This document shows positions 2,504 through 16,278 of a stretch of 16,278 nucleotides of DNA, piece by piece (positions within the stretch are counted from its first letter, which is position 1; each line of letters opens with the position of its first letter). The notes under the pieces were generated by a model. The model was given only the letters and a program-made list of their open reading frames with translations, had not been told where the DNA came from and did no database searches. The position numbers were made by a program, and so were the translations under genes. This DNA comes from a virus (lineage: Duplodnaviria; Heunggongvirae; Uroviricota; Caudoviricetes). Location: the IMG/VR virus record IMGVR_UViG_2563366911_000006; one strand, given 5' to 3'.

Positions 2504-3304
2504 ATGAAATTTCCAAAAACGCCCGTACAGGGGCAGGGCTTCGTTCGGCCTGAAAACCAGAATCTGCAAAATTTTGGTGAAATTATCCCGGTTATTTCCG
2601 GCGTTATTGGCGGGCGTGAAACCAATATTGTTAGTGCCAGAGCGTTGCATAAGGCGTTAGGTGTAGGGCGCGTTTTCCGTTCGTGGATCAAGGGGCGCAT
2701 TGAAGAATACGGCTTCACGGAAGGCGTGGATTATGAGGTTGTTGAATATTTGAGCCGACCCGATCCGGTGAGCGCAAAATCTCGCCAGCAAACAGCTCTT
2801 GAGTACATCATCACCGTGAACATGGCAAAAGAACTGGCGATGGTCGAACACACCGAACAGGGCCGTGCCGTTCGTCAGTACTTCATCAAATGCGAGGAGG
2901 AGCTACACAAGGTAGCGCCAGTGCGTTCCGCAGCGTTACGCCGGGAACTGAAAGCCCGTATCACCGTTGCCAGCTACTTTAAGCCGATGTGTGCCGCGCT
3001 GGAGGCGTACCGGGCTGAACTGGGTAAAAACACGTTCCAGCACCACTACACCACGGAAGCCAATATGCTGGCGCGTATCGTGCTGGGTGGCATGACTGCA
3101 AAACAGTGGGCACAGGCGAACGGCATTACAGGCGAACCACGCGACCACATGAGCACGTTGCAGCTTGAGCACCTTTCTTACCTTGAGCAGAGCAATATCA
3201 CGCTGATTGAGTTAGGCCTGGACTACCACCAGCGGAAAGCTGAATTAATTCGTCTTTCGCAGCGTTGGTTAGCCCGTCGCATGGAGGAAAACAGCCATGT
3301 GTAA
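2504..3304 (+). CDS. Phage antirepressor-like protein (AntA/Rha-type N-terminal domain)
   Basis: 266 aa, AGGAG Shine-Dalgarno 7 nt upstream. N-terminal segment ARALHKALGVGRVFRSWIKGRIEEYGFTEGVDYEV resembles the AntA/Rha antirepressor DNA-binding domain. C-terminal half not assigned. Confidence 0.75.
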   Translation: MKFPKTPVQGQGFVRPENQNLQNFGEIIPVISGVIGGRETNIVSARALHKALGVGRVFRSWIKGRIEEYGFTEGVDYEVVEYLSRPDPVSAKSRQQTALEYIITVNMAKELAMVEHTEQGRAVRQYFIKCEEELHKVAPVRSAALRRELKARITVASYFKPMCAALEAYRAELGKNTFQHHYTTEANMLARIVLGGMTAKQWAQANGITGEPRDHMSTLQLEHLSYLEQSNITLIELGLDYHQRKAELIRLSQRWLARRMEENSHV

Positions 3305-3976
3305 CGCTCTGACCGTTACAAAAAGAGAAAGCGCCCCGTTGCCGGAGCGCCTTTGTGAACGAATAGCCTACTGCGCCATATTGCTTACTGTCTACGAGGC
3401 AGATTATAGCGTTGTGGTCGCACAGAGTGAAGGCGCTGATCACCGTTACTACAGCACGCCAGAAATGCAGAATATTTTGCTGCAAAATGTCGTTGGTCAC
3501 GCTGTCCGGAAAGCAAAAAATTTTGCTGGTGGCGCGACTGATGCGATTTTGTCAGGTCGCAAGGTGATGATCAATCTGATGTCTAATTTCGTTCTGGATA
3601 AAACAAAGGCGACCGCAGAGGGCCACCAGTGGGAAAGCTACACACTTGAACACATCGCCAACAATGCCAGATTTGCGGCTGGTGGGCAATGTGATCAGTG
3701 TGCTGGCTTGCTGGTGGGCTATTCCTGCTCTTTAACATTGCCATGCCGCGATGTTTTCCAGGTATGCGACCCCATTTTTGTGCGCCTGTACTCTTTAAGG
3801 AATTTCTCAAGGATAAACGCACAGGGCGCGAATCTGTCTGACTCATATTCGTACGCTATCTTTCTGCGCTGTCTTTTCCGTGCCGGTGATGGTGTATTGG
3901 TCGATTCTTTGTTGGTCATTCTGTGTACCTGTAAAGCAATGCGCCGGAGTTCCTCACACCACGGCGATGATAGTTA

Positions 3977-4282
3977 TTATTCTGATTCTTTGGCCTTGCG
4001 GCGCTGGAGTTCTTCACGTGCGACGGTGACGAGCTGCCCGATCTCCTCGACAGCTTTGACTCCGATTTTTTCCACCTGCGCCAGTGCATTGAGCGAAGAA
4101 ACCAGGGGATTTTCTCCGCTTCCTTCTGCCTGGCGGCGGGCGATCTCACCACGCATGGCGGTTACTATGAATCCGGCGTTGCTTTCGCCGTCCAGTTTTA
4201 CGGATTCCATGCCTTCAAAAGCATCATGTGGGATACGAATTGAAATCTGTTTTGATTTGTCGTTGATAGTGTTTTTTGCCAT
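3977..4282 (-). CDS. Putative ribbon-helix-helix DNA-binding regulator
   Basis: 101 aa from ATG at 4282 (minus strand) with AGGAGA Shine-Dalgarno. N-terminus KQISIRIPHDAFEGMESVKL...FIVTAMRGEIARRQ fits a beta-strand/helix/helix RHH fold. Divergent from the rightward operon. The opposite-strand frame here reads as Ser/Arg-rich junk. Confidence 0.7.
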   Translation of the reverse strand: MAKNTINDKSKQISIRIPHDAFEGMESVKLDGESNAGFIVTAMRGEIARRQAEGSGENPLVSSLNALAQVEKIGVKAVEEIGQLVTVAREELQRRKAKESE

Positions 4283-4469
4283 GTGCATTCTCCTAAACAA
4301 AAGATGTGATTCAGTATACACAAAAAAGAATCACAAAAAATACTTGACCTGTGATTCAGTTAAATTTAATTTAAATCACACCTCAGTAAGAGGATATAAA
4401 CGACAACGCCCCGAACTGTTTGCGGCAGTAGCGGGGCGTCTAACCAAACCGTTAAATGAGGTAACGATT
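4283..4469. promoter_or_regulatory. Divergent control region with operator-like repeats and a leader hairpin
   Basis: Two 11-bp direct repeats TGTGATTCAGT (4305-4315, 4350-4360), each with an inverted partner GAATCACA/AATCACA (4328-4335, 4374-4380). Candidate rightward promoter TTGACC (4345-4350) with a TAATTT-type -10. Candidate leftward -10 TATACT (minus strand, 4313-4318). GC hairpin ACGCCCCG-N18-CGGGGCGT (4406-4439) in the operon leader. Confidence 0.5.
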
Positions 4470-4835
4470 ATGGCTGGGGCACAGCATACCCAAACTCACC
4501 CTAAATTTATATACACCTTCCTTGCGGTGCACCGTGATTGCATGGCTGACGGTAAAAACACTGTTCATGTAGCCGCCGATACGCTGGTTGATGCCTGCGA
4601 GATGCTCAATGACATGGGCTATATCTCGGCAACATGGAAAGGGCGCGAAGAAAACACGTTGTTTATTCAGAAATGCGAAAACAATTTTATCTGGCGTTTT
4701 ATCGCCCTGAGTACGGCACAACCGCGCGTGATTCACATCGAGGCCACCAGCGAACAGGAAGCACGCCAGCAATCTCCTGATGGCTGCGTGATGGTATTCG
4801 CTGCCCGTATTCGCCAGGAGGTGGAGCATGTGTAA
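4470..4835 (+). CDS. Hypothetical satellite-operon protein (possibly Icd-like)
   Basis: 121 aa, GAGGT Shine-Dalgarno 8 nt upstream of ATG 4470. It is the only protein-like part of the 512-aa ORF-track frame. Family assignment is from memory and uncertain. Confidence 0.65.
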   Translation: MAGAQHTQTHPKFIYTFLAVHRDCMADGKNTVHVAADTLVDACEMLNDMGYISATWKGREENTLFIQKCENNFIWRFIALSTAQPRVIHIEATSEQEARQQSPDGCVMVFAARIRQEVEHV

Positions 4836-5052
4836 TGCAACATGGCCTGATGCAGCGGTAGACGCTATCAAAACGCTGATGGATTCACTTATTGAGATTT
4901 CTGCTATCGCTGGTGTGGCGCATAAACACGCAGCCAGAGAATCAGAATGCATCTCCCATTATTTAGCATTTGTGCAGCTGAAAGCCGATCAGGCACTGGA
5001 TAAGGCCGGAAAAATTATCATGGCTGATGTACAGGAGGTGCACCATGCATAA
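4828..5052 (+). CDS. Hypothetical small protein
   Basis: 74 aa. Start overlaps upstream stop (ATGTGTAA), consistent with translational coupling. Confidence 0.5.
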   Translation: MCNATWPDAAVDAIKTLMDSLIEISAIAGVAHKHAARESECISHYLAFVQLKADQALDKAGKIIMADVQEVHHA

Positions 5053-5410
5053 CCTGTCAATTTCTGACCTTAACAGCATTCAGTTTGACGAGATATTTTC
5101 CGGGCAGCTACTGGTTAACGTGGAGAATGGACGCGTGGTAAGTAATTATCACCTGCCGGATGGTGCAATTGCCGGAAGCGTTGAAGCATTGCTGGAACTG
5201 GCGGAACGTGCGCGACTGATTAAGCCGTCAACGTGCCATCACGATGATGATCTGCATTTTACCGGGTGTATGGTGAGTCACTACGAAAACGGCGTTGAAG
5301 TATCCTGCGAACGTCTGCGTGATGATTGCTGTTTCGGCACACTGCCGGAATTTATCGAATTGCTGACCAGTTGCGGTTATCAGGTCATTCAGGGGGGTAA
5401 ACATGCGTGA
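5045..5410 (+). CDS. Hypothetical protein
   Basis: 121 aa from ATG 5045 with GGAGG Shine-Dalgarno (5033-5037). Overlaps upstream stop (ATGCATAA). Confidence 0.6.
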   Translation: MHNLSISDLNSIQFDEIFSGQLLVNVENGRVVSNYHLPDGAIAGSVEALLELAERARLIKPSTCHHDDDLHFTGCMVSHYENGVEVSCERLRDDCCFGTLPEFIELLTSCGYQVIQGGKHA

Positions 5411-5636
5411 TGATCGTTTTAATTCCCTGAAACAGGAGTTTGATGGCGCACCGGAAGATACATCGGGCGCATTGTTGAGCATTGCTGACATGATGAAAGC
5501 TGCATATTTTCTTATCAATACCAGGGGCTACAAGTCAGAGGGTGAAATGATTCTTAGTATTGCGTCGGACTATGCTGAATATGTGGCAGAGACGCGTTAC
5601 AGAAGAAAATCTCTGGAGGATGTAAGCCATGCATAA
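5403..5636 (+). CDS. Hypothetical small protein
   Basis: 77 aa. ATGCGTGA start/stop overlap with upstream gene. Confidence 0.55.
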   Translation: MRDDRFNSLKQEFDGAPEDTSGALLSIADMMKAAYFLINTRGYKSEGEMILSIASDYAEYVAETRYRRKSLEDVSHA

Positions 5637-5829
5637 TCATGAAGCGCATGTACCCGTAGTGCTTAATGTGCCAGATGATTTCACCGGACGCGTGCTGGTT
5701 TACCTTGATAAAGAAAAAGTGAAATCACAATGCCGACTGAAAAGTAATGAGATTGTGGGTTCTCCTGAATTTTTTTCTGAACTCTGTATTCGTGCAGAAA
5801 TAAAACCGGAACTGCTGACAGGAAAATAA
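5629..5829 (+). CDS. Hypothetical small protein
   Basis: 66 aa. ATGCATAA start/stop overlap with upstream gene. Confidence 0.5.
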   Translation: MHNHEAHVPVVLNVPDDFTGRVLVYLDKEKVKSQCRLKSNEIVGSPEFFSELCIRAEIKPELLTGK

Positions 5830-5833
5830 AACC

Positions 5834-6124
5834 ATGAAAAGGAAAAATTCTGGCTTTACTGCCAGCGGTCTCTCTCGGCCTGAAATCAGACACGGAGATA
5901 TTTACCGCGACACCAGACGTGGGGGACGAGTGGTTATTCGTCACGTTACGCCAGGCAATATCACCTACCGCCGTGAGGCTTACGAATATGACTGCGTAAT
6001 GCCGCGCCGTCAGTTTGAGCGTGATTTTATTCTGGTGGAAAACAAACAACAGGCAGTGGCGAGACGTGCAGCCACGAATATTAAAAAAATCCGGGCAATG
6101 TTGGTTGCGGGAGGTAAGAAGTGA
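5834..6124 (+). CDS. Hypothetical small basic protein
   Basis: 96 aa, starts 4 nt after the previous stop. Its stop overlaps the GTG start of the primase (GTGA). Confidence 0.6.
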   Translation: MKRKNSGFTASGLSRPEIRHGDIYRDTRRGGRVVIRHVTPGNITYRREAYEYDCVMPRRQFERDFILVENKQQAVARRAATNIKKIRAMLVAGGKK

Positions 6125-7926
6125 AAAACGCACCGAATTTAAAATATCAGCCGAAGGATAAATTCACCGAGGTAATCATTTTTGCCGGGACGGATGCTTA
6201 CGCCCATGCTCAACACTGGATTGAAAGCGAAGGACGAAAACACGGCGATAACGTGCCTCCTGTTTACCTGGGGCCAAAGCAACTGGCAGACCTGGCGAAT
6301 ATCCGCATTGTCGACGATGAACGCCGCTTTGCGCGTGTCTATCTCGCGGGGGAGATAGAGCCAATCCAGATCAATGCTATTGCTGAAAAGCTGGCGCTGG
6401 CTGGTGTACAGGACGCGAAATTATACAAAGGTATCACCGACCGGGAGCCGGAAAACTGGCGCGACTACCTGCAACGGATCCGCGAACAGGCAGAGAGTGG
6501 GGAAGTTTCAGCGATGAAATTAGCCACAAAAAATATTGACCTATCTAGGCCAGCACTAAATCAGATGGGAGCCAGCCAGAGAGGGGAAGTGTTACTTGAA
6601 TATTATGGAAGAGCACTGGCTATAAATGATGATTCTGATGTAGTTCACCATTACAACGGAATTGTCTGGGTGCCTGTATCTGATAAGGAACTCCAGCGGT
6701 CTATGGCGAAGATTTTTATTGATGCTGGAATCAGTTATTCGCAAAACGCCATTAAATTTGCCGTAGACACAATGAAATTGAGCCTGCCTGTTATGGGCGG
6801 GGCAGACAGGAATCTTATTGGATTCAGTAACGGGGTATTTGATACCCGGACGGGAAATTTTCGGGAGCATAACAAAAATGACTGGTTGTTAAATGCCAGT
6901 GAATTACCGTTCAGCCCACCAGCAGAGGGGGAAACGCTGGCAACACATGCGCCGAATTTCTGGAAGTGGCTGCGTCGTTCGGTGGCAGATAATGATCGTA
7001 AAGCTGATCGCGTACTGGCGGCATTATTCATGGTGCTGGCGAACCGGTACGACTGGCAGTTATTCCTTGAGGTAACAGGCCCAGGCGGAAGCGGTAAAAG
7101 TGTGATGGCTGAGATTTGTACCATGCTGGCGGGTAAGGCAAACACAGTATCGGCAAGCATGAAGGCTCTGGAAGACGCAAGGGAACGCGCGTTAGTAGTT
7201 GGCTTTTCGCTGATTATCATGCCGGATATGACTCGCTACGCTGGCGATGGTGCAGGAATTAAGGCAATTACTGGCGGCGACAAGGTGGCAATTGATCCGA
7301 AACATAAAGCCCCCTACTCCACACGTATTCCGGCAGTAGTGCTTGCGGTAAACAATAACGCCATGTCATTCAGTGACCGAAGCGGGGGGATCTCGCGTCG
7401 TAGGGTGATATTTAATTTCTCTGAGGTCGTACCGGAGAACGAACGCGATCCCATGCTGGCGGAAAAGATAGAAGGCGAACTGGCGGTAGTGATTCGCCAT
7501 TTGCTAACACGATTTACCGACCAGGACGAAGCTAAAAGACTACTTTATGAGCAGCAAAAATCAGAAGAAGCGCTGTTGATAAAGCGCGAAGGTGATTCAC
7601 TGGTGGACTTTTGCGGCTATCTGATGTCGTTGGTTAAATGTGAAGGAATGATGGTGGGCAATGCGGAAATAGTGCCATTTAGCCCGAGGCGATACCTGTA
7701 TCATGCTTATTTAGCCTATATGTCAGCGCATGGCCTGGGAAAACCAGTATCACTGACACGCTTTGGTACTGATATGCCAGGAGCTATGGCGGAATACGGA
7801 AAGGAGTATAAGCGGGCTAAATGCACTAAAGGCCCGGATAAAGGGCGAGTGATAACAAATGTTCTGTTAGATGATGATGCTGATGGCTGGTTGCCAGCAG
7901 CTACAGGGATTAACGACAGAACATAA
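6121..7926 (+). CDS. Replication primase/helicase, P4 alpha-type C-terminal family (P-loop NTPase)
   Basis: 601 aa, GTG start with GGAGG Shine-Dalgarno. Walker A motif TGPGGSGKS near aa 316 (about nt 7066-7092). Overall resemblance to the P4-family primase C-terminal/helicase region. Followed directly by iterons. Confidence 0.88.
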   Translation: MKNAPNLKYQPKDKFTEVIIFAGTDAYAHAQHWIESEGRKHGDNVPPVYLGPKQLADLANIRIVDDERRFARVYLAGEIEPIQINAIAEKLALAGVQDAKLYKGITDREPENWRDYLQRIREQAESGEVSAMKLATKNIDLSRPALNQMGASQRGEVLLEYYGRALAINDDSDVVHHYNGIVWVPVSDKELQRSMAKIFIDAGISYSQNAIKFAVDTMKLSLPVMGGADRNLIGFSNGVFDTRTGNFREHNKNDWLLNASELPFSPPAEGETLATHAPNFWKWLRRSVADNDRKADRVLAALFMVLANRYDWQLFLEVTGPGGSGKSVMAEICTMLAGKANTVSASMKALEDARERALVVGFSLIIMPDMTRYAGDGAGIKAITGGDKVAIDPKHKAPYSTRIPAVVLAVNNNAMSFSDRSGGISRRRVIFNFSEVVPENERDPMLAEKIEGELAVVIRHLLTRFTDQDEAKRLLYEQQKSEEALLIKREGDSLVDFCGYLMSLVKCEGMMVGNAEIVPFSPRRYLYHAYLAYMSAHGLGKPVSLTRFGTDMPGAMAEYGKEYKRAKCTKGPDKGRVITNVLLDDDADGWLPAATGINDRT

Positions 7927-7953
7927 TACGAAATTTATAAGCTGAAACGTAAA

Positions 7954-8289
7954 GGTAGACGGTTGGTAGACAGATTCACTTAACCCTCTACCAACCATCT
8001 ACCAATTAATATTTTGAATTATAAAGATATTTTCAATGTAGTAGAGAGGTAGACAGTTATTTCTATATTCCTAAACCACGGGGGGTATATAAAAAACAGA
8101 TAGTTAAGGGGGCATTTTTTAAATTTCTCTTTTAACTGTCTACACTGTCTACCATTTAGTAAAAATCATTAATTATCAATGTATTAATGCGGTAGACCGT
8201 TGGTAGACAGTTTGCAGATTGTTTTTTTGTTATGTGTTAATAACATTAAATAAATCAATCAATTATATCGGTAGACAGTTGGTAGACAG
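7954..8289. repeat. Iteron array, putative satellite replication origin
   Basis: Repeated GGTAGAC(N)GTTGGTAGACAG units in both orientations (7954-7973, inverted 7987-8002, 8041-8056, inverted 8136-8153, 8191-8210, 8270-8289) separated by AT-rich DNA. No ORF of 60 aa or more. Immediately 3' of the primase/helicase gene. Confidence 0.7.
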
Positions 8290-8301
8290 TTGTAACGATG
8301 G

Positions 8302-8310
8302 GGCAAAGCA
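8302..8310. repeat. IS10 target-site duplication, left copy (GGCAAAGCA)
   Basis: 9-bp sequence identical to 9640-9648, directly flanking the IS10 ends. Confidence 0.9.
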
Positions 8311-8356
8311 CTGATGAATCCCCTAATGATTTTGGTAAAAATCATTAAGTTAAGGT

Positions 8357-8425
8357 GGATACACATCTTGTCATATGATCAAATGGTTTCGCGAAAAATC
8401 AATAATCAGACAACAAGATGTGCGA
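8357..8425 (-). ncRNA. IS10 RNA-OUT antisense RNA (position inferred)
   Basis: Placed by offset from the IS10 outside end using textbook IS10 organisation. Imperfect inverted repeat CATCTTGTC (8364-8372) / GACAACAAGATG (8409-8420) fits the RNA-OUT stem overlapping the transposase start. Confidence 0.45.
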
Positions 8426-9626
8426 ACTCGATATTTTACACGACTCTCTTTACCAATTCTGCCCCGAATTACACTTAAAACGACTCAACAGCTTAACGTT
8501 GGCTTGCCACGCATTACTTGACTGTAAAACTCTCACTCTTACCGAACTTGGCCGTAACCTGCCAACCAAAGCGAGAACAAAACATAACATCAAACGAATC
8601 GACCGATTGTTAGGTAATCGTCACCTCCACAAAGAGCGACTCGCTGTATACCGTTGGCATGCTAGCTTTATCTGTTCGGGCAATACGATGCCCATTGTAC
8701 TTGTTGACTGGTCTGATATTCGTGAGCAAAAACGACTTATGGTATTGCGAGCTTCAGTCGCACTACACGGTCGTTCTGTTACTCTTTATGAGAAAGCGTT
8801 CCCGCTTTCAGAGCAATGTTCAAAGAAAGCTCATGACCAATTTCTAGCCGACCTTGCGAGCATTCTACCGAGTAACACCACACCGCTCATTGTCAGTGAT
8901 GCTGGCTTTAAAGTGCCATGGTATAAATCCGTTGAGAAGCTGGGTTGGTACTGGTTAAGTCGAGTAAGAGGAAAAGTACAATATGCAGACCTAGGAGCGG
9001 AAAACTGGAAACCTATCAGCAACTTACATGATATGTCATCTAGTCACTCAAAGACTTTAGGCTATAAGAGGCTGACTAAAAGCAATCCAATCTCATGCCA
9101 AATTCTATTGTATAAATCTCGCTCTAAAGGCCGAAAAAATCAGCGCTCGACACGGACTCATTGTCACCACCCGTCACCTAAAATCTACTCAGCGTCGGCA
9201 AAGGAGCCATGGATTCTAGCAACTAACTTACCTGTTGAAATTCGAACACCCAAACAACTTGTTAATATCTATTCGAAGCGAATGCAGATTGAAGAAACCT
9301 TCCGAGACTTGAAAAGTCCTGCCTACGGACTAGGCCTACGCCATAGCCGAACGAGCAGCTCAGAGCGTTTTGATATCATGCTGCTAATCGCCCTGATGCT
9401 TCAACTAACATGTTGGCTTGCGGGCGTTCATGCTCAGAAACAAGGTTGGGACAAGCACTTCCAGGCTAACACAGTCAGAAATCGAAACGTACTCTCAACA
9501 GTTCGCTTAGGCATGGAAGTTTTGCGGCATTCTGGCTACACAATAACAAGGGAAGACTCACTCGTGGCTGCAACCCTGCTTACTCAAAATCTATTCACAC
9601 ATGGTTACGTTTTGGGGAAATTATGA
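8418..9626 (+). CDS. IS10 transposase
   Basis: 402-aa ORF MCELDILHDSLYQFCPELHLKRLNSLTLACHALLDCKTLTLTELGRNLPTKARTKHNIKRIDRLLGN... recognised as the IS10/Tn10 transposase. Full length, intact frame. Confidence 0.95.
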   Translation: MCELDILHDSLYQFCPELHLKRLNSLTLACHALLDCKTLTLTELGRNLPTKARTKHNIKRIDRLLGNRHLHKERLAVYRWHASFICSGNTMPIVLVDWSDIREQKRLMVLRASVALHGRSVTLYEKAFPLSEQCSKKAHDQFLADLASILPSNTTPLIVSDAGFKVPWYKSVEKLGWYWLSRVRGKVQYADLGAENWKPISNLHDMSSSHSKTLGYKRLTKSNPISCQILLYKSRSKGRKNQRSTRTHCHHPSPKIYSASAKEPWILATNLPVEIRTPKQLVNIYSKRMQIEETFRDLKSPAYGLGLRHSRTSSSERFDIMLLIALMLQLTCWLAGVHAQKQGWDKHFQANTVRNRNVLSTVRLGMEVLRHSGYTITREDSLVAATLLTQNLFTHGYVLGKL

Positions 9627-9639
9627 GGGGATCTCTCAG

Positions 9640-9648
9640 GGCAAAGCA
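9640..9648. repeat. IS10 target-site duplication, right copy (GGCAAAGCA)
   Basis: Identical to 8302-8310. Its last base is the A of the ATG of the next gene. Confidence 0.9.
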
Positions 9649-10178
9649 TGACTAAGCTGACCATTAACAGAAAACCAAAAGGTATTTACGGCACGCCGCA
9701 GAAAACGACGCAGGCGGCACAGGAGCAGGATAAAACCACATCGGCGCATAAAGTGATGCCCGGTAACCAGAAAGCGCAGCAGAAGCCTACAGGGGCGACA
9801 CCGTGGCGGCATATGACCAAACGCCAGCGCAAAAACCGCAGGCGCGTTAACCGCCTCACTGAGTTGTGGCCTGACTTATTCAGCCGGGAAGCACTGAAGC
9901 CGCTTAAGGTGGGGATATTCGACGACCTGATGCAGGATCTCGCCGCCAGGGGGCTGGCATTCGGGCCAGGGGCATTGCGTGCGACGCTGGCATCTTATGC
10001 GCAGTGTCCGCGCTATTACCGCGCCTTAATGGCTGGTGGGGTACGCTACGACCTGAAAGGCCAGCCGTGCGGCGAGGTGACACCACAGGAACAACAGGAC
10101 GCAGAAACGCGGCTGGTGGCGCTGAATGAGAAGCGCAAACGCCAGTGCCGGGCAGCAAAGGAGACAATAGGCGCATGA
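9648..10178 (+). CDS. ProQ/FinO-domain protein (RNA chaperone-like)
   Basis: 176 aa, GC-rich. Segment PLKVGIFDDLMQDL...LRATLASYAQCPRYYRALMAGGVRYDLKGQPCGEVTPQEQ closely parallels the conserved ProQ/FinO core (PLKIGIF..DL...R.DL.G.PCGE). IS10 lies immediately upstream. Confidence 0.72.
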   Translation: MTKLTINRKPKGIYGTPQKTTQAAQEQDKTTSAHKVMPGNQKAQQKPTGATPWRHMTKRQRKNRRRVNRLTELWPDLFSREALKPLKVGIFDDLMQDLAARGLAFGPGALRATLASYAQCPRYYRALMAGGVRYDLKGQPCGEVTPQEQQDAETRLVALNEKRKRQCRAAKETIGA

Positions 10179-10462
10179 TTCACGACAGCAAAGCGGAAGC
10201 ACTGGAAGCGCGTGGTCTGTACCGGAGAGCGGCGGCGCGGTGGGCTGAGGTCATCATGCTGGCGAATGATGACAAGGCACGGGAACAGGCGGCAAAACGT
10301 CGCGCGGAATGTATCCACAAGGCAGCACGCCCACCAGCAAGGCAGGATAATTTCGGGGAGATGCGCGAAACCATCAGCCGGGCACATGCCGGGATGGGAT
10401 TACATCAGCCCAATGGTGAGGCATTCAGGAAATACCAAAAAAAGAACAATTGTAGTCAGTAA
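10175..10462 (+). CDS. PerC-family-like small transcriptional regulator
   Basis: 95 aa from ATG 10175, overlapping the upstream stop (ATGA). N-terminal AEALEARGLYRRAAARWAEV recalls the PerC family. Assignment from memory, moderate certainty. Confidence 0.6.
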   Translation: MIHDSKAEALEARGLYRRAAARWAEVIMLANDDKAREQAAKRRAECIHKAARPPARQDNFGEMRETISRAHAGMGLHQPNGEAFRKYQKKNNCSQ

Positions 10463-10596
10463 CAGAGGATGGGATTCTCTTGGTTTTTTGTTGATGCTTT
10501 CTGAGGAAATCTACTACGTTGCTGAGCAGATGAATATTCAATTGCATCTGGGTTCCTGATAAGATTAATCTGAATATTTTCATTTGGAATAGGGAT

Positions 10597-11739
10597 ATGA
10601 ATAAAACTTTAATTGCAACATTAGTCGGTATAGTAATGTTAACCGGATGTGGGCCAGAAGAGTTAACTCCAGAACAGAAACAGGAAGTAGCTGCTCTTAA
10701 AGCTGAACTGTCGCAAACGGAAGGTGAAATATCAGCAGCTAAGGAAGTTGACCAGCAGTTTTCTGGTGGGTTGATAAAAAATCTGACAACAGCAAGACTG
10801 GAAATATTAGGAACTAATAAAGCGCTTTTGGAACAGCGTATTAATGCTATTGAATCAGGTGCCAAAATTGATGTTGTTGTATCTGGAGTAAAACCTGATC
10901 CTGAGCTTGCGGCTTCAATTAAAACTGAAATTGACAGCTTAGATGCAAAAATCAACGAAGCCAAAGCTGATGCTCGTCAGTATAGTGGTGGTCTGATAAA
11001 GGTACTAAAATTATCTACTGTTGCCACTGAAGAGCAGACCATGGCAATGTTGCAGCAAAAGTACCTCACAGCCAAGTATGGCCTCGCTGAAGTTAAGCTG
11101 GCATCAGTACAAGCTAATGACGCAAAAAACAGTACTGAAACGGAAGTAACAGCCAAAAATTCCCAAGAGCAACTTCCTTTACTCCCGCCAGCGGATGGTC
11201 CGTTTGGCTTAGAAGCCGGTCTTACACAGAAAAACATCGAAGATATGATCGGTGCTAAGCTCAAGCCACTACCAGACAGTGTGAATCTGTATACTTCTGA
11301 TAAATTACCGAAGCAAAACGCAGATTTTGAAATGTATGGTTTGCTGATCTCCCCGAAAGCTGGTTTATGTCAAATACGGGCTTTAGGAAAAAATATTGAT
11401 ACTGATAGCTATGGATTGGCTCTTAAATCCAAGTTTGAAGAATTGAGTAATTCTTTAAGTTCTCTGTATGGAAAGGCTGATACTACAGACTTTTTGCTGG
11501 CTGGTTCAATTTGGAAAGATCCTCAGGACTGGATGAGGGGGCTAAACAAAAAAGAACGCTTCTTATCTGCCACATGGAAGGGAACAAAAGAAATACCATT
11601 AAAAAACAATATTGATACTATATCTATTGAGGCCAGAGCGAACAATTCCACTCAGGGATATGTCTATCTGCAGTACTCATTTACAAATGACGAAATTTGT
11701 CAGGCAGAAATTGAAGGGGCGAAAAAAAGTTCCCTTTAA
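10597..11739 (+). CDS. Lipoprotein with internal repeats, function unknown
   Basis: 380 aa. Signal peptide with lipobox LTGC (Cys18). Two copies of a Q(F/Y)SGGLIK motif about 70 aa apart in a coiled-coil-like N-terminal half. AT-rich. Followed by a strong terminator. Confidence 0.85.
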   Translation: MNKTLIATLVGIVMLTGCGPEELTPEQKQEVAALKAELSQTEGEISAAKEVDQQFSGGLIKNLTTARLEILGTNKALLEQRINAIESGAKIDVVVSGVKPDPELAASIKTEIDSLDAKINEAKADARQYSGGLIKVLKLSTVATEEQTMAMLQQKYLTAKYGLAEVKLASVQANDAKNSTETEVTAKNSQEQLPLLPPADGPFGLEAGLTQKNIEDMIGAKLKPLPDSVNLYTSDKLPKQNADFEMYGLLISPKAGLCQIRALGKNIDTDSYGLALKSKFEELSNSLSSLYGKADTTDFLLAGSIWKDPQDWMRGLNKKERFLSATWKGTKEIPLKNNIDTISIEARANNSTQGYVYLQYSFTNDEICQAEIEGAKKSSL

Positions 11740-11751
11740 ACAATCCGTGCA

Positions 11752-11778
11752 AAGCCCCTTAGTAAGGGGCTTTTATAT
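11752..11778 (+). terminator. Rho-independent terminator
   Basis: Perfect 9-bp stem AAGCCCCTT / AAGGGGCTT with 3-nt loop, followed by TTATATATT. Confidence 0.7.
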
Positions 11779-11803
11779 ATTAATGTTCAACGTGGGGGAT
11801 TAG

Positions 11804-12127
11804 ATGAAAGATAATCTAGCAAAACTAATTGAAAATACTTTAAAAGATATTCTATTAGCTAATGCTGCTCTAACATTCATTTTTGCAATACCAATGGCTA
11901 TTATCAGTAGGCATGGGATGGGCATCACAATCTGGTTTATAACTGTGCTCATTGCACCTGCTCTGTGTGCAGTAGGTGCATGGCTTGTATCTCGAACATC
12001 CGGCCATGCTGAGGAGTTCTTTCATCGTCGGTGGGCTAAGCGAATTTATGTTTTTTATACTCTTGCGGCTGCCGAGTTTTTGCTTGTGTACTCAATCGCG
12101 CAAATAATGAAAAATCTGATGAAATAA
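11804..12127 (+). CDS. Small integral membrane protein (about 3 TM helices)
   Basis: 107 aa, GGGGGA Shine-Dalgarno. Three hydrophobic stretches of about 20 aa (LANAALTFIFAIPMAIIS, ITIWFITVLIAPALCAVGAWLV, IYVFYTLAAAEFLLVYSIAQIM). AT-rich. Confidence 0.7.
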   Translation: MKDNLAKLIENTLKDILLANAALTFIFAIPMAIISRHGMGITIWFITVLIAPALCAVGAWLVSRTSGHAEEFFHRRWAKRIYVFYTLAAAEFLLVYSIAQIMKNLMK

Positions 12128-12395
12128 TTAACAAGTTATTATCATGGAGCTTGTGGCTGTTAACCTGCAGTGAGGCGACAATCGTGTATTTATAAAAACT
12201 TCCCCTTTTCACTCCCCGCTGCTTCTTCTGCTATTGCCTTTATGTTTGCATCTGCCATACCTTTGCAGAAAAATCAGAGCATTCAGTGCCGAAGGTTGGT
12301 TTATTGATGCTTTTCGTTTCATTTATTGCAATTGTCTCTGGTATCATTTCAATTTGTGCAATAATTGCAATTATTGTCATTCAGAAGGGATCATC

Positions 12396-12862: not shown

Positions 12863-12931
12863 TCCATACCCACAACGCATTCCCTTTCCGCATGAAATTA
12901 TTTTTTATCGTATATGCATGAGGTGAGCTAC

Positions 12932-13459
12932 ATGTTGATGAGTAAAGCCGAATACGCCAAATACAAAGGCGTAAGCCGCCAGACAGTTTACGACTGGCTC
13001 GAGAAAGGCGAAGTGGTCATGTCCGGTAAAAAAATTGATGTGGAGGCGACAGAGCAGCGGAACAGCCCACCGGCACAAGGGAAAGACACCGTTTCTGAAA
13101 TGTGGCCAGAAAGAACGCTGGAAATGACGTGGGGCGAGTTCTGGAAAGCAGTTAAGGCCAGAGACGGTAAAATTCCTTCGCCAGTAACGGACGATGACAT
13201 ACAGCAGCGTGTGCTGTATGCAGCCGGGGAATTAGGCTGGGAAGTGCACTTTCTTGATGATGGTGCTATCTGCCTTGAGGATGATGAAGGGCAGCATTAC
13301 TTTGAAAAATACAATTTGCGAGGTAATGCCAGGCTGGCAATTCGTATGCTGCGTTGCGAACTCTGCTATGTTGCAGGTGATTATCCCGATGAACTGGAAT
13401 CATGGAGTGAAGCCGGGCTAAACGCCCTGGCTGAATGGGAAAAATCAGACCATCAATGA
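12932..13459 (+). CDS. N-terminal HTH protein (possible small-terminase-like or packaging-redirection-like DNA-binding protein)
   Basis: 175 aa from ATG 12932 with GAGGTGA Shine-Dalgarno. N-terminus MSKAEYAKYKGVSRQTVYDWLEKGEV is an HTH of the type found at the N-terminus of small terminase / Nu1-like proteins. Acidic C-terminal domain. A repeat array lies immediately downstream. Confidence 0.65.
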   Translation: MLMSKAEYAKYKGVSRQTVYDWLEKGEVVMSGKKIDVEATEQRNSPPAQGKDTVSEMWPERTLEMTWGEFWKAVKARDGKIPSPVTDDDIQQRVLYAAGELGWEVHFLDDGAICLEDDEGQHYFEKYNLRGNARLAIRMLRCELCYVAGDYPDELESWSEAGLNALAEWEKSDHQ

Positions 13460-14289: not shown

Positions 14290-16278
14290 GTGTTCCTAAT
14301 ATCTGACCTTAGCGACTTGCGTGCACTTTCGGAATCCGCAGAGCTAGAGTTCAAGCTAGCTCAAGGGAAAGACGGACAAGGTAAATTACCTGATGATTTC
14401 TGGCCAACCTATAGTGCTATGGCAAACTGCCGTGGTGGGTATGTGGTTTTAGGTATTAGAGAGAAAAAAGGGGAATTTTCCGTTGCGGGTATCTCAGATA
14501 TAAATACCGTTAAAAAGCAGCTTTTCGACCTCGTGAGCAACAAGAAAAAAGTTAACGTTAATCTTCTTACCAATAACTCTGTCCAAACAGTATCCTTACA
14601 GGGAAAGGATATTCTTGTCATTGAAATACCAATCGCACGACGAGAACAGAAACCTGTTTATTTGAATAATCAACCCATGTCAGAAACATGGTTTCGTATG
14701 CACGACGGTGATCATCGTTGTTCAGAAGAACAAGTTCGTCGCATGATGGCCGAACAGGTTGAAGAAAGCCGCGACAACCGTATCGTACAAAACTTCGACA
14801 TGAACGATATTAACCTAGAAAGCTTGTTGGCTTACAGAAATCTACTATCTGCTTCAAACCCGACACATCCAGCTCTCGAACTAGATAACTTTGCTTTCCT
14901 ACGAAGTATTGGGGGATATAGAAAAGACCGGCAAACAGGTTTGGAAGGCATGACCTTAGCTGGCATTCTCATGTTTGGAACATGGGAAGCGATACAAGAT
15001 GTAGCCCCAAATTATTTTGTGGATTACCAAGAACGCCCTGAAGCAAGAACTGAAAGAAGATGGGTAGATAGACTATGTCCCGATGGGACTTGGTCAGGTA
15101 ACGTGTTTGACTTTTACAGACGAACCTATCGAAAACTAATTGCTGACTTAAAAGTCCCTTTTGAGCTTAAAGAAGGTATCCGACAGGACGATACTCAGAT
15201 ACACACAGCATTGCGTGAAGCGCTGGTAAATACCTTAGTTCATGCCGATTATACTGGACGAATCTCCATCATGGTTGTGAAACGACCAGATCTATTTGGC
15301 TTCCGTAATCCAGGTTTGATGCGCGTGCCACCAGAACAAGCAATCAAAGGATATGAAAGCGATTGTCGAAACCGACTGATGCATCAAATGTTTTTAATTA
15401 TTGGTGCTGGTGAACGATCAGGCTCAGGGATCCCTAAAATATTTAGTGGCTGGAAATGGGCTAACTGGCGTATGCCAAGGCTATATGAAAAAACAGAACC
15501 AGAACAAACACTTTTGGAGCTATCTATTGGCAACCTCGTATCAGAAGAAATTGCCAATCTTCTCCATACAAAATTTGGCGACAAAGTAGACCATCTCAGT
15601 GAGCTTGAGCGCAGTATTGTTATAACTGCAGCCGTAGAAAAGTGGATTGACCATGAACGGGCTTGTCAACTAACTAGCCTTCACTCTCGTGAGGTAACTT
15701 TAGCCTTACCCCGCCTTGTAAGCGGCGGATTCTTAGTCCCTCATGGTGAGAAGAGGAATAAATCATATACATTACCGGGGCAGGATCTTCCATCTCCAGA
15801 GGAAGTTTTTGGTGTAAATCCGTTATCAACAGACAACTCATTCGCAAACGAAGCTCAAATCATCACGGATAGCGATAATTTGATCACGGATAACGAAGAA
15901 TTGATCACGGATAACGAAAAAGAACGAGATGCTTTAGGTCGTTTTATAACCGAGAAACTACCTTTTCCTTATGTGGATAACCTTGAGTGCCTTTCACCAA
16001 CCTTAAGGCAACGGTTAGAAGACATATCTGCATTAGCCAGAGAAAAGAAACGACTTTCCAACGAAACCATGGACGAAATCATACTTAAGCTTTGCTCAGG
16101 CCATTATATGCCGCTTAGTGTTATTGCAAAGTTAATGGCCCGAACACCACAGAACCTACGAGAAAAACAGCTCGTTCCATTAGTAAGATCCGGAAAAATA
16201 AGACTGGCATTTCCTCATGCGAGAAGACACAAACGACAGGGATATATTTCTTGTGAACAAGTACAAGTTAACAACTAA
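14290..16278 (+). CDS. Schlafen/AlbA_2-domain protein with GHKL-like ATPase-type region (COG2865-like) and extended C-terminus
   Basis: 662 aa, GTG start with GGAGG upstream. N-terminal SESAELEFK signature; LAGILMFG segment; LREALVNTLVHADY...FRNPG...ERSGSGIPKIF matching the HATPase_c_4-like core of COG2865 proteins; C-terminal HTH-like segments. Family call from memory of motifs. Ends exactly at the window end. Confidence 0.8.
   Translation: MFLISDLSDLRALSESAELEFKLAQGKDGQGKLPDDFWPTYSAMANCRGGYVVLGIREKKGEFSVAGISDINTVKKQLFDLVSNKKKVNVNLLTNNSVQTVSLQGKDILVIEIPIARREQKPVYLNNQPMSETWFRMHDGDHRCSEEQVRRMMAEQVEESRDNRIVQNFDMNDINLESLLAYRNLLSASNPTHPALELDNFAFLRSIGGYRKDRQTGLEGMTLAGILMFGTWEAIQDVAPNYFVDYQERPEARTERRWVDRLCPDGTWSGNVFDFYRRTYRKLIADLKVPFELKEGIRQDDTQIHTALREALVNTLVHADYTGRISIMVVKRPDLFGFRNPGLMRVPPEQAIKGYESDCRNRLMHQMFLIIGAGERSGSGIPKIFSGWKWANWRMPRLYEKTEPEQTLLELSIGNLVSEEIANLLHTKFGDKVDHLSELERSIVITAAVEKWIDHERACQLTSLHSREVTLALPRLVSGGFLVPHGEKRNKSYTLPGQDLPSPEEVFGVNPLSTDNSFANEAQIITDSDNLITDNEELITDNEKERDALGRFITEKLPFPYVDNLECLSPTLRQRLEDISALAREKKRLSNETMDEIILKLCSGHYMPLSVIAKLMARTPQNLREKQLVPLVRSGKIRLAFPHARRHKRQGYISCEQVQVNN

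Follow-up and report, generated by a model that had tools for sequence, protein, structure and literature searches.

We analyzed two adjacent genes in the virus record IMGVR_UViG_2563366911_000006 (Caudoviricetes), a stretch of DNA of 16,278 nucleotides that is here referred to, in its full length, as the window. The two genes, located at positions 10463–12127, encode a 380-aa lipoprotein and a 107-aa membrane protein. A preliminary description, made from the sequence without database searches, had suggested that they represent a candidate exclusion or defence module that acts on the cell envelope. Below, we describe the locus, the predicted properties of the two proteins and the genomic settings of their homologues, and weigh the possible roles of the lipoprotein.

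The locus and its element

The element around the two genes is an Escherichia coli phage-inducible chromosomal island (PICI). The window contains int, alpA, antA and a primase gene, and neither the gene listing nor a scan with PHROGs revealed any structural or lysis genes in it. The gene order runs from the integrase gene to a 260-aa AT-rich gene, the genes for an AlpA-type regulator and an AntA/B antirepressor, a set of small genes and the primase gene. It continues with an IS4-type insertion sequence, the ProQ/FinO and PerC genes, the lipoprotein gene and the 107-aa gene, and ends with small genes, a gene for a 181-aa helix-turn-helix/TerS-like protein and a gene for a Schlafen/AlbA_2 protein. 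PICIs are approximately 10–15 kb in size and have the gene order int, alpA, pri, and the present layout agrees with the one described for E. coli PICIs (PMC11773190). The segment 10463–12127 is 100% identical to the corresponding segments of E. coli 55989 and O104:H4 strains. Of 5426 complete E. coli genomes, 113 contain the segment, in every case on the chromosome. The features of the segment and its borders are as follows.

10493..12312, strand (.): accessory insert of approximately 1.8 kb, defined by junction alignments with locus L008, coverage across E. coli genomes and GC content
10487..10500, + strand: left copy of a 14-nt direct repeat, TTTGTTGATGCTTT, from a direct-repeat search
12300..12313, + strand: right copy of the 14-nt direct repeat, TTTATTGATGCTTT, from the same search
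10597..11739, + strand: lipoprotein gene, 380 aa, WP_001044338.1 in E. coli 55989, supported by the list of open reading frames, homologues and the ratio of non-synonymous to synonymous substitution rates (dN/dS)
11804..12127, + strand: gene for the 107-aa membrane protein, WP_000654335.1, with three hydrophobic helices, supported by the list of open reading frames, homologues, hydropathy and dN/dS

Both genes are accessory cargo and not part of the satellite core, because the related PICI of E. coli ABU 83972 lacks them, strain JNU has other genes in their place, and they are AT-rich and located in a hotspot that adjoins pri. In the ABU 83972 island, the products of int, the 260-aa gene, alpA, antA and the 3' Schlafen-like gene are identical to those of the window at the protein level, and the remaining backbone genes show 76–99% identity (76% for the primase). 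However, this island contains neither the lipoprotein gene nor the membrane protein gene, and the downstream small genes start approximately 110 nt after PerC. The same slot is filled by different genes in strain JNU, including a DUF2213 gene. The insert has a GC content of 0.40, which is below that of the window as a whole (0.45) and that of the upstream ProQ/PerC genes (0.58). Thus, two statements of the preliminary description, that the genes are AT-rich and that neither is a core function of the satellite, find support in these comparisons.

PICIs have been reported to contain an accessory and immune region near their centre, adjoining pri, which is the site of the Tai defence genes (PMC11364771). 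The insert lies within this hotspot region, downstream of pri and between the primase/ProQ/PerC genes and the putative packaging genes. The two copies of the direct repeat are identical at 13 of 14 positions, spaced by 1813 nt and located one at each junction of the insert. The repeat may be a chance match, notable only for its position at both junctions.

The lipoprotein and the membrane protein

Both open reading frames are real genes, since comparisons with the Klebsiella copies yielded dN/dS values of 0.05 for the lipoprotein and 0.16 for the membrane protein, in both cases at dS above 1. The lipoprotein gene and its flanks can be divided into the following features.

10563..10581, + strand: upstream element TGATAAGATTAATCTGAAT, 16–34 nt before the ATG, with an invariant TG.TA.GAT core in 12 loci
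10597..10650, + strand: signal peptide with lipobox LTGC (Cys18) and Gly at position +2, from the sequence and the homologue alignment
10666..11106, + strand: N-module, two tandem helical hairpins (residues ~24–96 and 97–170), each with an (F/Y)SGGLIK turn
11107..11187, + strand: variable linker, residues 171–197, ending in LPLLPP, from low confidence in the predicted structure, dN/dS and variable alignment columns
11188..11736, + strand: C-module, residues 198–380, an alpha/beta domain of ~180 aa with Cys258 and Cys368 co-conserved
11751..11783, + strand: intrinsic terminator of the lipoprotein gene, a hairpin (11751–11773) and a T/A-rich tract

The upstream element is kept, a few tens of nucleotides before the ATG, in 12 loci that have otherwise unrelated DNA further upstream, and its family consensus is TGnTAGGATTAATCCGAA. 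The consensus includes a perfect 10-bp palindrome, GGATTAATCC, which overlaps a −10-like sequence and reads GATTAATC in the window. The element resembles an extended −10 promoter and may function as one, and the palindrome could be an operator for some regulator. A scan for −35/−10 consensus sequences did not call a promoter at the lipoprotein gene. Downstream of the stop codon, the terminator AAAGCCCCTTAGTAAGGGGCTTT has a GC-rich 10-bp stem with a folding energy (dG) of −14.5 kcal/mol (z = −3.2), and 15 of 17 homologous contexts have a hairpin with a T-run 3' of the lipoprotein gene. Because the promoter-like element, the gene and the terminator go together, the gene behaves as a moron, and the comparison of loci suggests a self-contained unit that moves as a single gene between elements.

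The signal sequence of the lipoprotein, MNKTLIATLVGIVMLTGC, ends in the lipobox L15-T16-G17-C18 (nt 10639–10650), which follows the pattern [LVI][ASTVI][GAS]C. Across 22 homologues, residues G17, C18, G19 and P20 do not vary; Leu occupies position 15 in at least 90% of the sequences, and Thr, Ala or Ser is found at position 16. From the lipobox and the Gly at position +2 (the Lol rule), the protein is predicted to be anchored in the inner leaflet of the outer membrane. A location outside the cytoplasm is also suggested by the invariant Gly-Cys of the lipobox, by the co-variation of two cysteines in the C-module and by the Sec signals on stand-alone homologues. The two cysteines, Cys258 and Cys368, are both present in 36 of 43 sequences and both absent in 6 of 43, which is consistent with a periplasmic disulfide.

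The motifs QFSGGLIK (residues 54–61, nt 10756–10779) and QYSGGLIK (residues 128–135, nt 10978–11001) are the turns of two homologous helix-turn-helix hairpins of ~55 aa each. The internal duplication was evident both from a Smith-Waterman comparison (z = 9.5, a score reached by 0 of 2000 shuffles) and from an hhalign comparison of the two halves of the family alignment (probability 96.9%, E = 1.7e-10). The structure predicted by AlphaFold2 on the family alignment consists of two helical hairpins (residues ~24–161), a low-confidence linker and a compact C-terminal domain. In this model, the duplicated hairpin probably forms a four-helix stalk. The predicted local distance difference test score (pLDDT) is below 50 for residues 164–207, which include the linker, and the C-terminal domain reached a pLDDT of 96.8 when re-modelled with 43 diverse sequences. 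Likewise, dN/dS is 0.13–0.17 in the linker as compared to 0.02–0.05 in the two modules. A search of solved structures with profiles of the full-length protein and the C-module gave only coiled-coil or chance matches, and the structural matches of the lipoprotein were all weak and scattered over many unrelated functions. The analysis agrees with the preliminary description in that the gene encodes a 380-aa lipoprotein with the lipobox LTGC and duplicated Q(F/Y)SGGLIK motifs, and that it has a strong terminator of its own.

The 107-aa protein has three hydrophobic stretches, at residues 16–34, 39–63 and 81–101, with Kyte-Doolittle maxima over 19 residues of 2.35, 2.23 and 1.72, as expected for the three-helix membrane protein that had been proposed. 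It did not match PF14373 (Imm_superinfect), and its Pfam matches were all far below threshold (TgpA_N at 14.2 bits versus a cutoff of 30). Its size and helix number (~100 aa, three helices) also recall class I holins and the immunity proteins of pore-forming colicins. However, no Pfam, PHROG or NCBIfam match to these was found and the window contains no lysis or colicin gene. The spanin, holin and colicin-immunity readings were dropped, given the lack of partner genes and of homology.

The preliminary description had treated the two genes as one module, and they might be the two components of a single envelope-spanning system. They are adjacent, co-oriented and only 64 nt apart, both have a low GC content and both are under purifying selection. 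Moreover, they always occur together in E. coli, and also in some Klebsiella, Citrobacter and Enterobacter copies. However, the membrane protein gene lies beyond the strong terminator of the lipoprotein gene, and the lipoprotein is found without it in most contexts, including Enterobacter, Klebsiella-type and Pantoea PICIs and all prophage loci examined. The membrane protein has only 17 detectable homologues, versus at least 318 relatives of the lipoprotein scored among the matches listed, and it is the more diverged of the two between E. coli and Klebsiella (68% versus 88% identity). The positive-inside rule, with Lys and Arg counted by hand, points to a topology with the N-terminus inside and stretches of ~4 and 6 residues facing the periplasm. 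Because only ~10 residues would be exposed there, a complex with the periplasmic domain of the lipoprotein is unlikely. Taken together, we consider a two-component system highly improbable, and the 107-aa protein, a predicted inner-membrane protein, appears to be a lineage-specific passenger of the same slot and not an obligate partner.

Distribution and candidate role of the lipoprotein

Close homologues of the lipoprotein, at 60–90% identity, are found across Enterobacterales and are all annotated as hypothetical. An exhaustive search with a hidden Markov model returned 2866 matches at E ≤ 0.001 among 1.84 billion representatives of 50%-identity clusters, and the N-module and the C-module are separable across these matches. 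The C-module alone makes up proteins of ~200 aa in many bacterial groups and across phyla, in which the domain starts with GPFGLxMG directly after a Sec signal peptide. Such stand-alone homologues also occur at chromosomal sites that lack mobile-element genes in the vicinity. Other C-termini can follow the N-module, among them a VasI (type VI-associated) domain and a peptidoglycan-binding domain. In inner-membrane-anchored versions, a cytoplasmic N-terminal region is followed by a hydrophobic stretch and then by the N-module and the C-module. When the fusion partners of the two modules were scanned against Pfam, VasI, DUF2846, GYF_2 and SbsC_C were each matched only once.

The genomic context was analyzed for ~70 loci with a homologue of the lipoprotein, taken from species-representative genomes, IMG/VR and public assemblies. 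Three main settings were observed. In E. coli-type PICIs, the lipoprotein gene follows the primase, ProQ and PerC genes and precedes the 107-aa gene. In the PICIs of Klebsiella/Enterobacter, Pantoea and Tatumella, it is located after the primase gene and the 107-aa gene is missing. In lambda-like prophages of Xenorhabdus, Proteus and Pantoea, it adjoins the genes for the tail-assembly chaperone and the tape measure protein (TMP), and PHROG matches confirmed the identity of TMP, M, L, K and J. In addition, a Mu-like phage encodes a full-length homologue with 38% identity, and no homologue was found in the GenBank collection of cultured phages. This distribution suggests a lipoprotein unit that is mobile among PICIs, the tail-gene regions found in lambda-like prophages, a Mu-like phage and further islands of Enterobacterales.

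The same settings might suggest that the lipoprotein serves the life cycle of the element itself, for example in the timing of lysis, in release, in the exploitation of a helper phage, or in tail functions or DNA delivery. The gene is located between the replication and packaging genes in PICIs and directly upstream of the tail-chaperone or tape-measure genes in prophages, and it is conserved across PICIs of several genera. However, it is absent from closely related and apparently intact PICIs such as that of ABU 83972, which keeps int, alpA, the primase gene and the downstream genes, and it has its own promoter-like element and terminator. Furthermore, a lipoprotein exported by Sec cannot join the assembly of virions in the cytoplasm, and the gene is not part of a lysis cassette, with no endolysin or holin gene nearby among the genes of the window. 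A role in the life cycle is therefore very unlikely in our view.

In unrelated mobile elements, the neighbours of the lipoprotein gene are repeatedly validated or annotated conflict genes, namely Tai, Imm-like, Abi and bacteriocin genes. In a Pantoea prophage, a Tai homologue (48% identical to phi80 TaiEcA) is located 4 kb from the lipoprotein gene, in the same cluster as Phd/Doc. In Klebsiella-type PICIs, the neighbour is an Imm_superinfect protein (PF14373, E = 3.8e-16) with a C-terminal zinc ribbon. In Enterobacter cancerogenus, Abi and a colicin-like bacteriocin flank a copy of the lipoprotein gene with 86% identity. A relative of the C-module adjoins AbiEii and the genes of a type I-E CRISPR-Cas system.

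The arrangement of some of these loci can be described in more detail. The accessory cluster of the Pantoea prophage (L023, positions 5422–11804; also L071) is located just upstream of the tail-assembly-chaperone genes and contains the Tai homologue, Phd/Doc-like toxin-antitoxin genes and a CI-like repressor with two antirepressors, followed by the lipoprotein. In the Klebsiella-type PICIs (L054–L063 and L068), the Imm_superinfect protein has 106–108 aa and is encoded ~670 nt downstream of the lipoprotein gene (for example at 9808–10131 in L054), with a gene for a two-helix membrane protein of 54–77 aa in between. On the conjugative plasmid p2 of Paracoccus sediminicola (L088, positions 3998–5296), a 432-aa relative of the N-module adjoins a BREX system; in this protein, the duplicated hairpin N-module is combined with a PG_binding_1 domain (E = 1.7e-14) and a middle domain.

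We compared the lipoprotein with known proteins of similar location or position. Cor of phi80, N15 and T1 and Llp of T5 are outer-membrane lipoproteins that block FhuA. The lipoprotein resembles them in being a moron of temperate phages, located in or near the tail-gene module, and in its predicted sorting to the outer membrane. However, Cor has 77 aa and Llp ~60 aa, as compared to the 380 aa and two modules of the present protein, and a tblastn search of the window with phi80 Cor matched the signal peptide only (E = 0.014). The lipoproteins Lpp021 and Lpp010 of mEpimmI coliphages, encoded in the structural-gene cluster, have been shown experimentally to exclude superinfecting phages, and the variable positions discussed for these exclusion lipoproteins fall in their first 40 residues (PMC11893012). 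The likeness to them, which was assessed by description, is the location of a lipoprotein gene in the structural cluster of temperate coliphages, whereas the present family is also found in satellites and outside phages. Tai shares with the lipoprotein the PICI slot and the distribution over PICIs and prophage morons (PMC11364771). In contrast to the lipoprotein, which is predicted to be exported and lipid-anchored, Tai inhibits tail assembly inside the cell, and TaiEcA (phi80 orf63) had no match in the window below E = 1.

T4 Imm and the Imm_superinfect proteins (PF14373) are small inner-membrane proteins of mobile elements, which in Klebsiella-type PICIs are encoded at roughly the position of the 107-aa gene, but the 107-aa protein matches neither this nor any other family at or near threshold. 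TraT and Bor/Iss are outer-membrane lipoproteins of mobile elements (plasmids and prophages) that alter the host surface and confer surface exclusion or serum resistance. Their architecture is different, and the lipoprotein had no Pfam or NCBIfam match at or near threshold. Overall, the lipoprotein is placed like the exclusion lipoproteins of the Cor/Llp and mEp types, but from these sequence comparisons does not appear to be a member of the families tested (Cor, Tai and the PADLOC models).

Based on these observations, we propose that the lipoprotein is a moron that acts on the envelope of the carrier cell, most likely by superinfection exclusion, and we assign a probability of roughly 0.4 to this mechanism as a whole. 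According to this proposal, the resident satellite or prophage would express the lipoprotein constitutively, and its C-terminal domain would bind a conserved component of the periplasm or envelope. The envelope would thereby be altered in a way that blocks an incoming phage, either at adsorption or at the periplasmic step of DNA entry, and the resulting exclusion would shield both the host of the element and the element itself. Superinfection exclusion is favoured because the PICI slot is a documented immune hotspot, because the neighbours are repeatedly conflict genes, and because lipoprotein morons in tail-gene clusters, such as Cor and Lpp021/Lpp010, are a proven route to exclusion. Carriage by both lambda-like prophages and PICIs also fits with competition between these elements, and some PICIs are known to exploit lambda-like phages (PMC11364771).

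Several observations weigh against superinfection exclusion. The arguments for it all come from genomic context, and the association with conflict genes consists of individual loci. The protein, with its 380 aa and two modules, differs from known exclusion lipoproteins such as Cor. For both proteins, searches against Pfam, NCBIfam, PHROGs and PADLOC (PADLOC-DB 2.0.0, 0 families) yielded no match at or close to threshold, and a literature search by accession number and topic found no description of the lipoprotein. Purifying selection on the lipoprotein is very strong (dN/dS 0.02–0.05 in the modules), and the C-module is kept across phyla, including the chromosomal settings without mobile-element genes. 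Such strong conservation fits better with a conserved cellular target or a housekeeping-like activity than with a receptor mask engaged in an arms race. A clear homologue among housekeeping lipoproteins of known function, which according to the preliminary description would have refuted its proposal, was not found.

The main rival explanation is a moron for host fitness or competition, in which the lipoprotein would protect or remodel the envelope to the benefit of the carrier cell, for example through resistance to serum or stress, as with Bor and TraT, or immunity to bacteriocins or type VI effectors that act in the periplasm. The strong conservation would suit a conserved toxin or a conserved envelope target. 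The fusions of the N-module to a VasI domain and to a peptidoglycan-binding domain, the copy that adjoins a colicin-like bacteriocin locus and the stand-alone homologues in chromosomal settings are in line with such a role. On the other hand, the structural matches are weak and belong to many unrelated functions, a cognate toxin gene is not consistently found next to the lipoprotein gene, and the repeated occurrence of this gene in the PICI immune hotspot and, together with Tai, in the moron clusters of prophage tail modules points to phage conflict. We regard a contribution to host fitness or toxin immunity as rather unlikely, although less so than the two-gene system or a role in the life cycle of the element.

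To return to superinfection exclusion, a broader version of this proposal is that the lipoprotein is the founding member of a new, widespread class of proteins for anti-phage defence or superinfection exclusion at the level of the envelope. These would combine two extracytoplasmic modules, a duplicated SGGL(I/V) helical-hairpin stalk and a ~180-aa cysteine-pair domain that targets a conserved step of phage DNA entry in the periplasm, and their genes would pass as single-gene cassettes from one element to another, among PICI hotspots and the moron clusters of lambda-like tail modules. In this general form, the proposal is doubtful. The lipoprotein is nevertheless a well-defined and widespread candidate in a validated immune hotspot, and envelope-level defences carried by satellites are poorly catalogued relative to intracellular systems. 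The family is large, with no Pfam entry or close solved structure, and comprises two undescribed modules. If the lipoprotein does block phage entry, it would represent a new protein architecture for superinfection exclusion and provide a handle on a conserved step of infection in the periplasm. If not, the family would still be a large uncharacterised group of secreted bacterial proteins that is worth naming.

Other genes of the island

The mechanical listing of open reading frames in the window includes one of 512 aa at 3297–4835. Related annotated PICIs have small genes on both strands in this region (YlcI/YnfO family, Icd-like and others), and the 512-aa frame is probably not a gene. The 260-aa gene between int and alpA (1311–2093) has a GC content of 0.31, and E. 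coli 55989 has a different gene of ~265 aa at this position. Its product had zero matches in Pfam, NCBIfam, PHROGs and PADLOC, and it may be cargo of a 5' accessory region of the PICI.

The IS4-type insertion sequence between the primase and ProQ genes is located in the region 7927–9647 of the window and contains a transposase open reading frame at 8418–9626 (402 aa), which we take to be similar to the IS10 transposase. The gap between the primase and ProQ genes is 1722 nt in the window versus ~390 nt in two related PICIs (L010 and L036), which fits with a single insertion of ~1.33 kb.

A motif of the HTH_17/excisionase type is located at the N-terminus of the 181-aa protein encoded at 12914–13459, which also matched the PHROG for the terminase small subunit (E = 2e-6). 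Like Rpp, this protein may serve the PICI in redirecting packaging.

At the 3' end of the PICI, positions 14290–16278 encode a protein of more than 662 aa that continues past the end of the window. It contains Schlafen/AlbA_2 and HATPase_c_4 domains and shows weak PADLOC matches to pAgo- and SIR2-associated models. The same slot is occupied by an AAA ATPase and a DUF4435 protein in E. coli 55989, presumably a pair similar to the PARIS system, and by an Orc1/Cdc6-like protein in strain JNU. This 3' slot is a variable defence hotspot of the island family.

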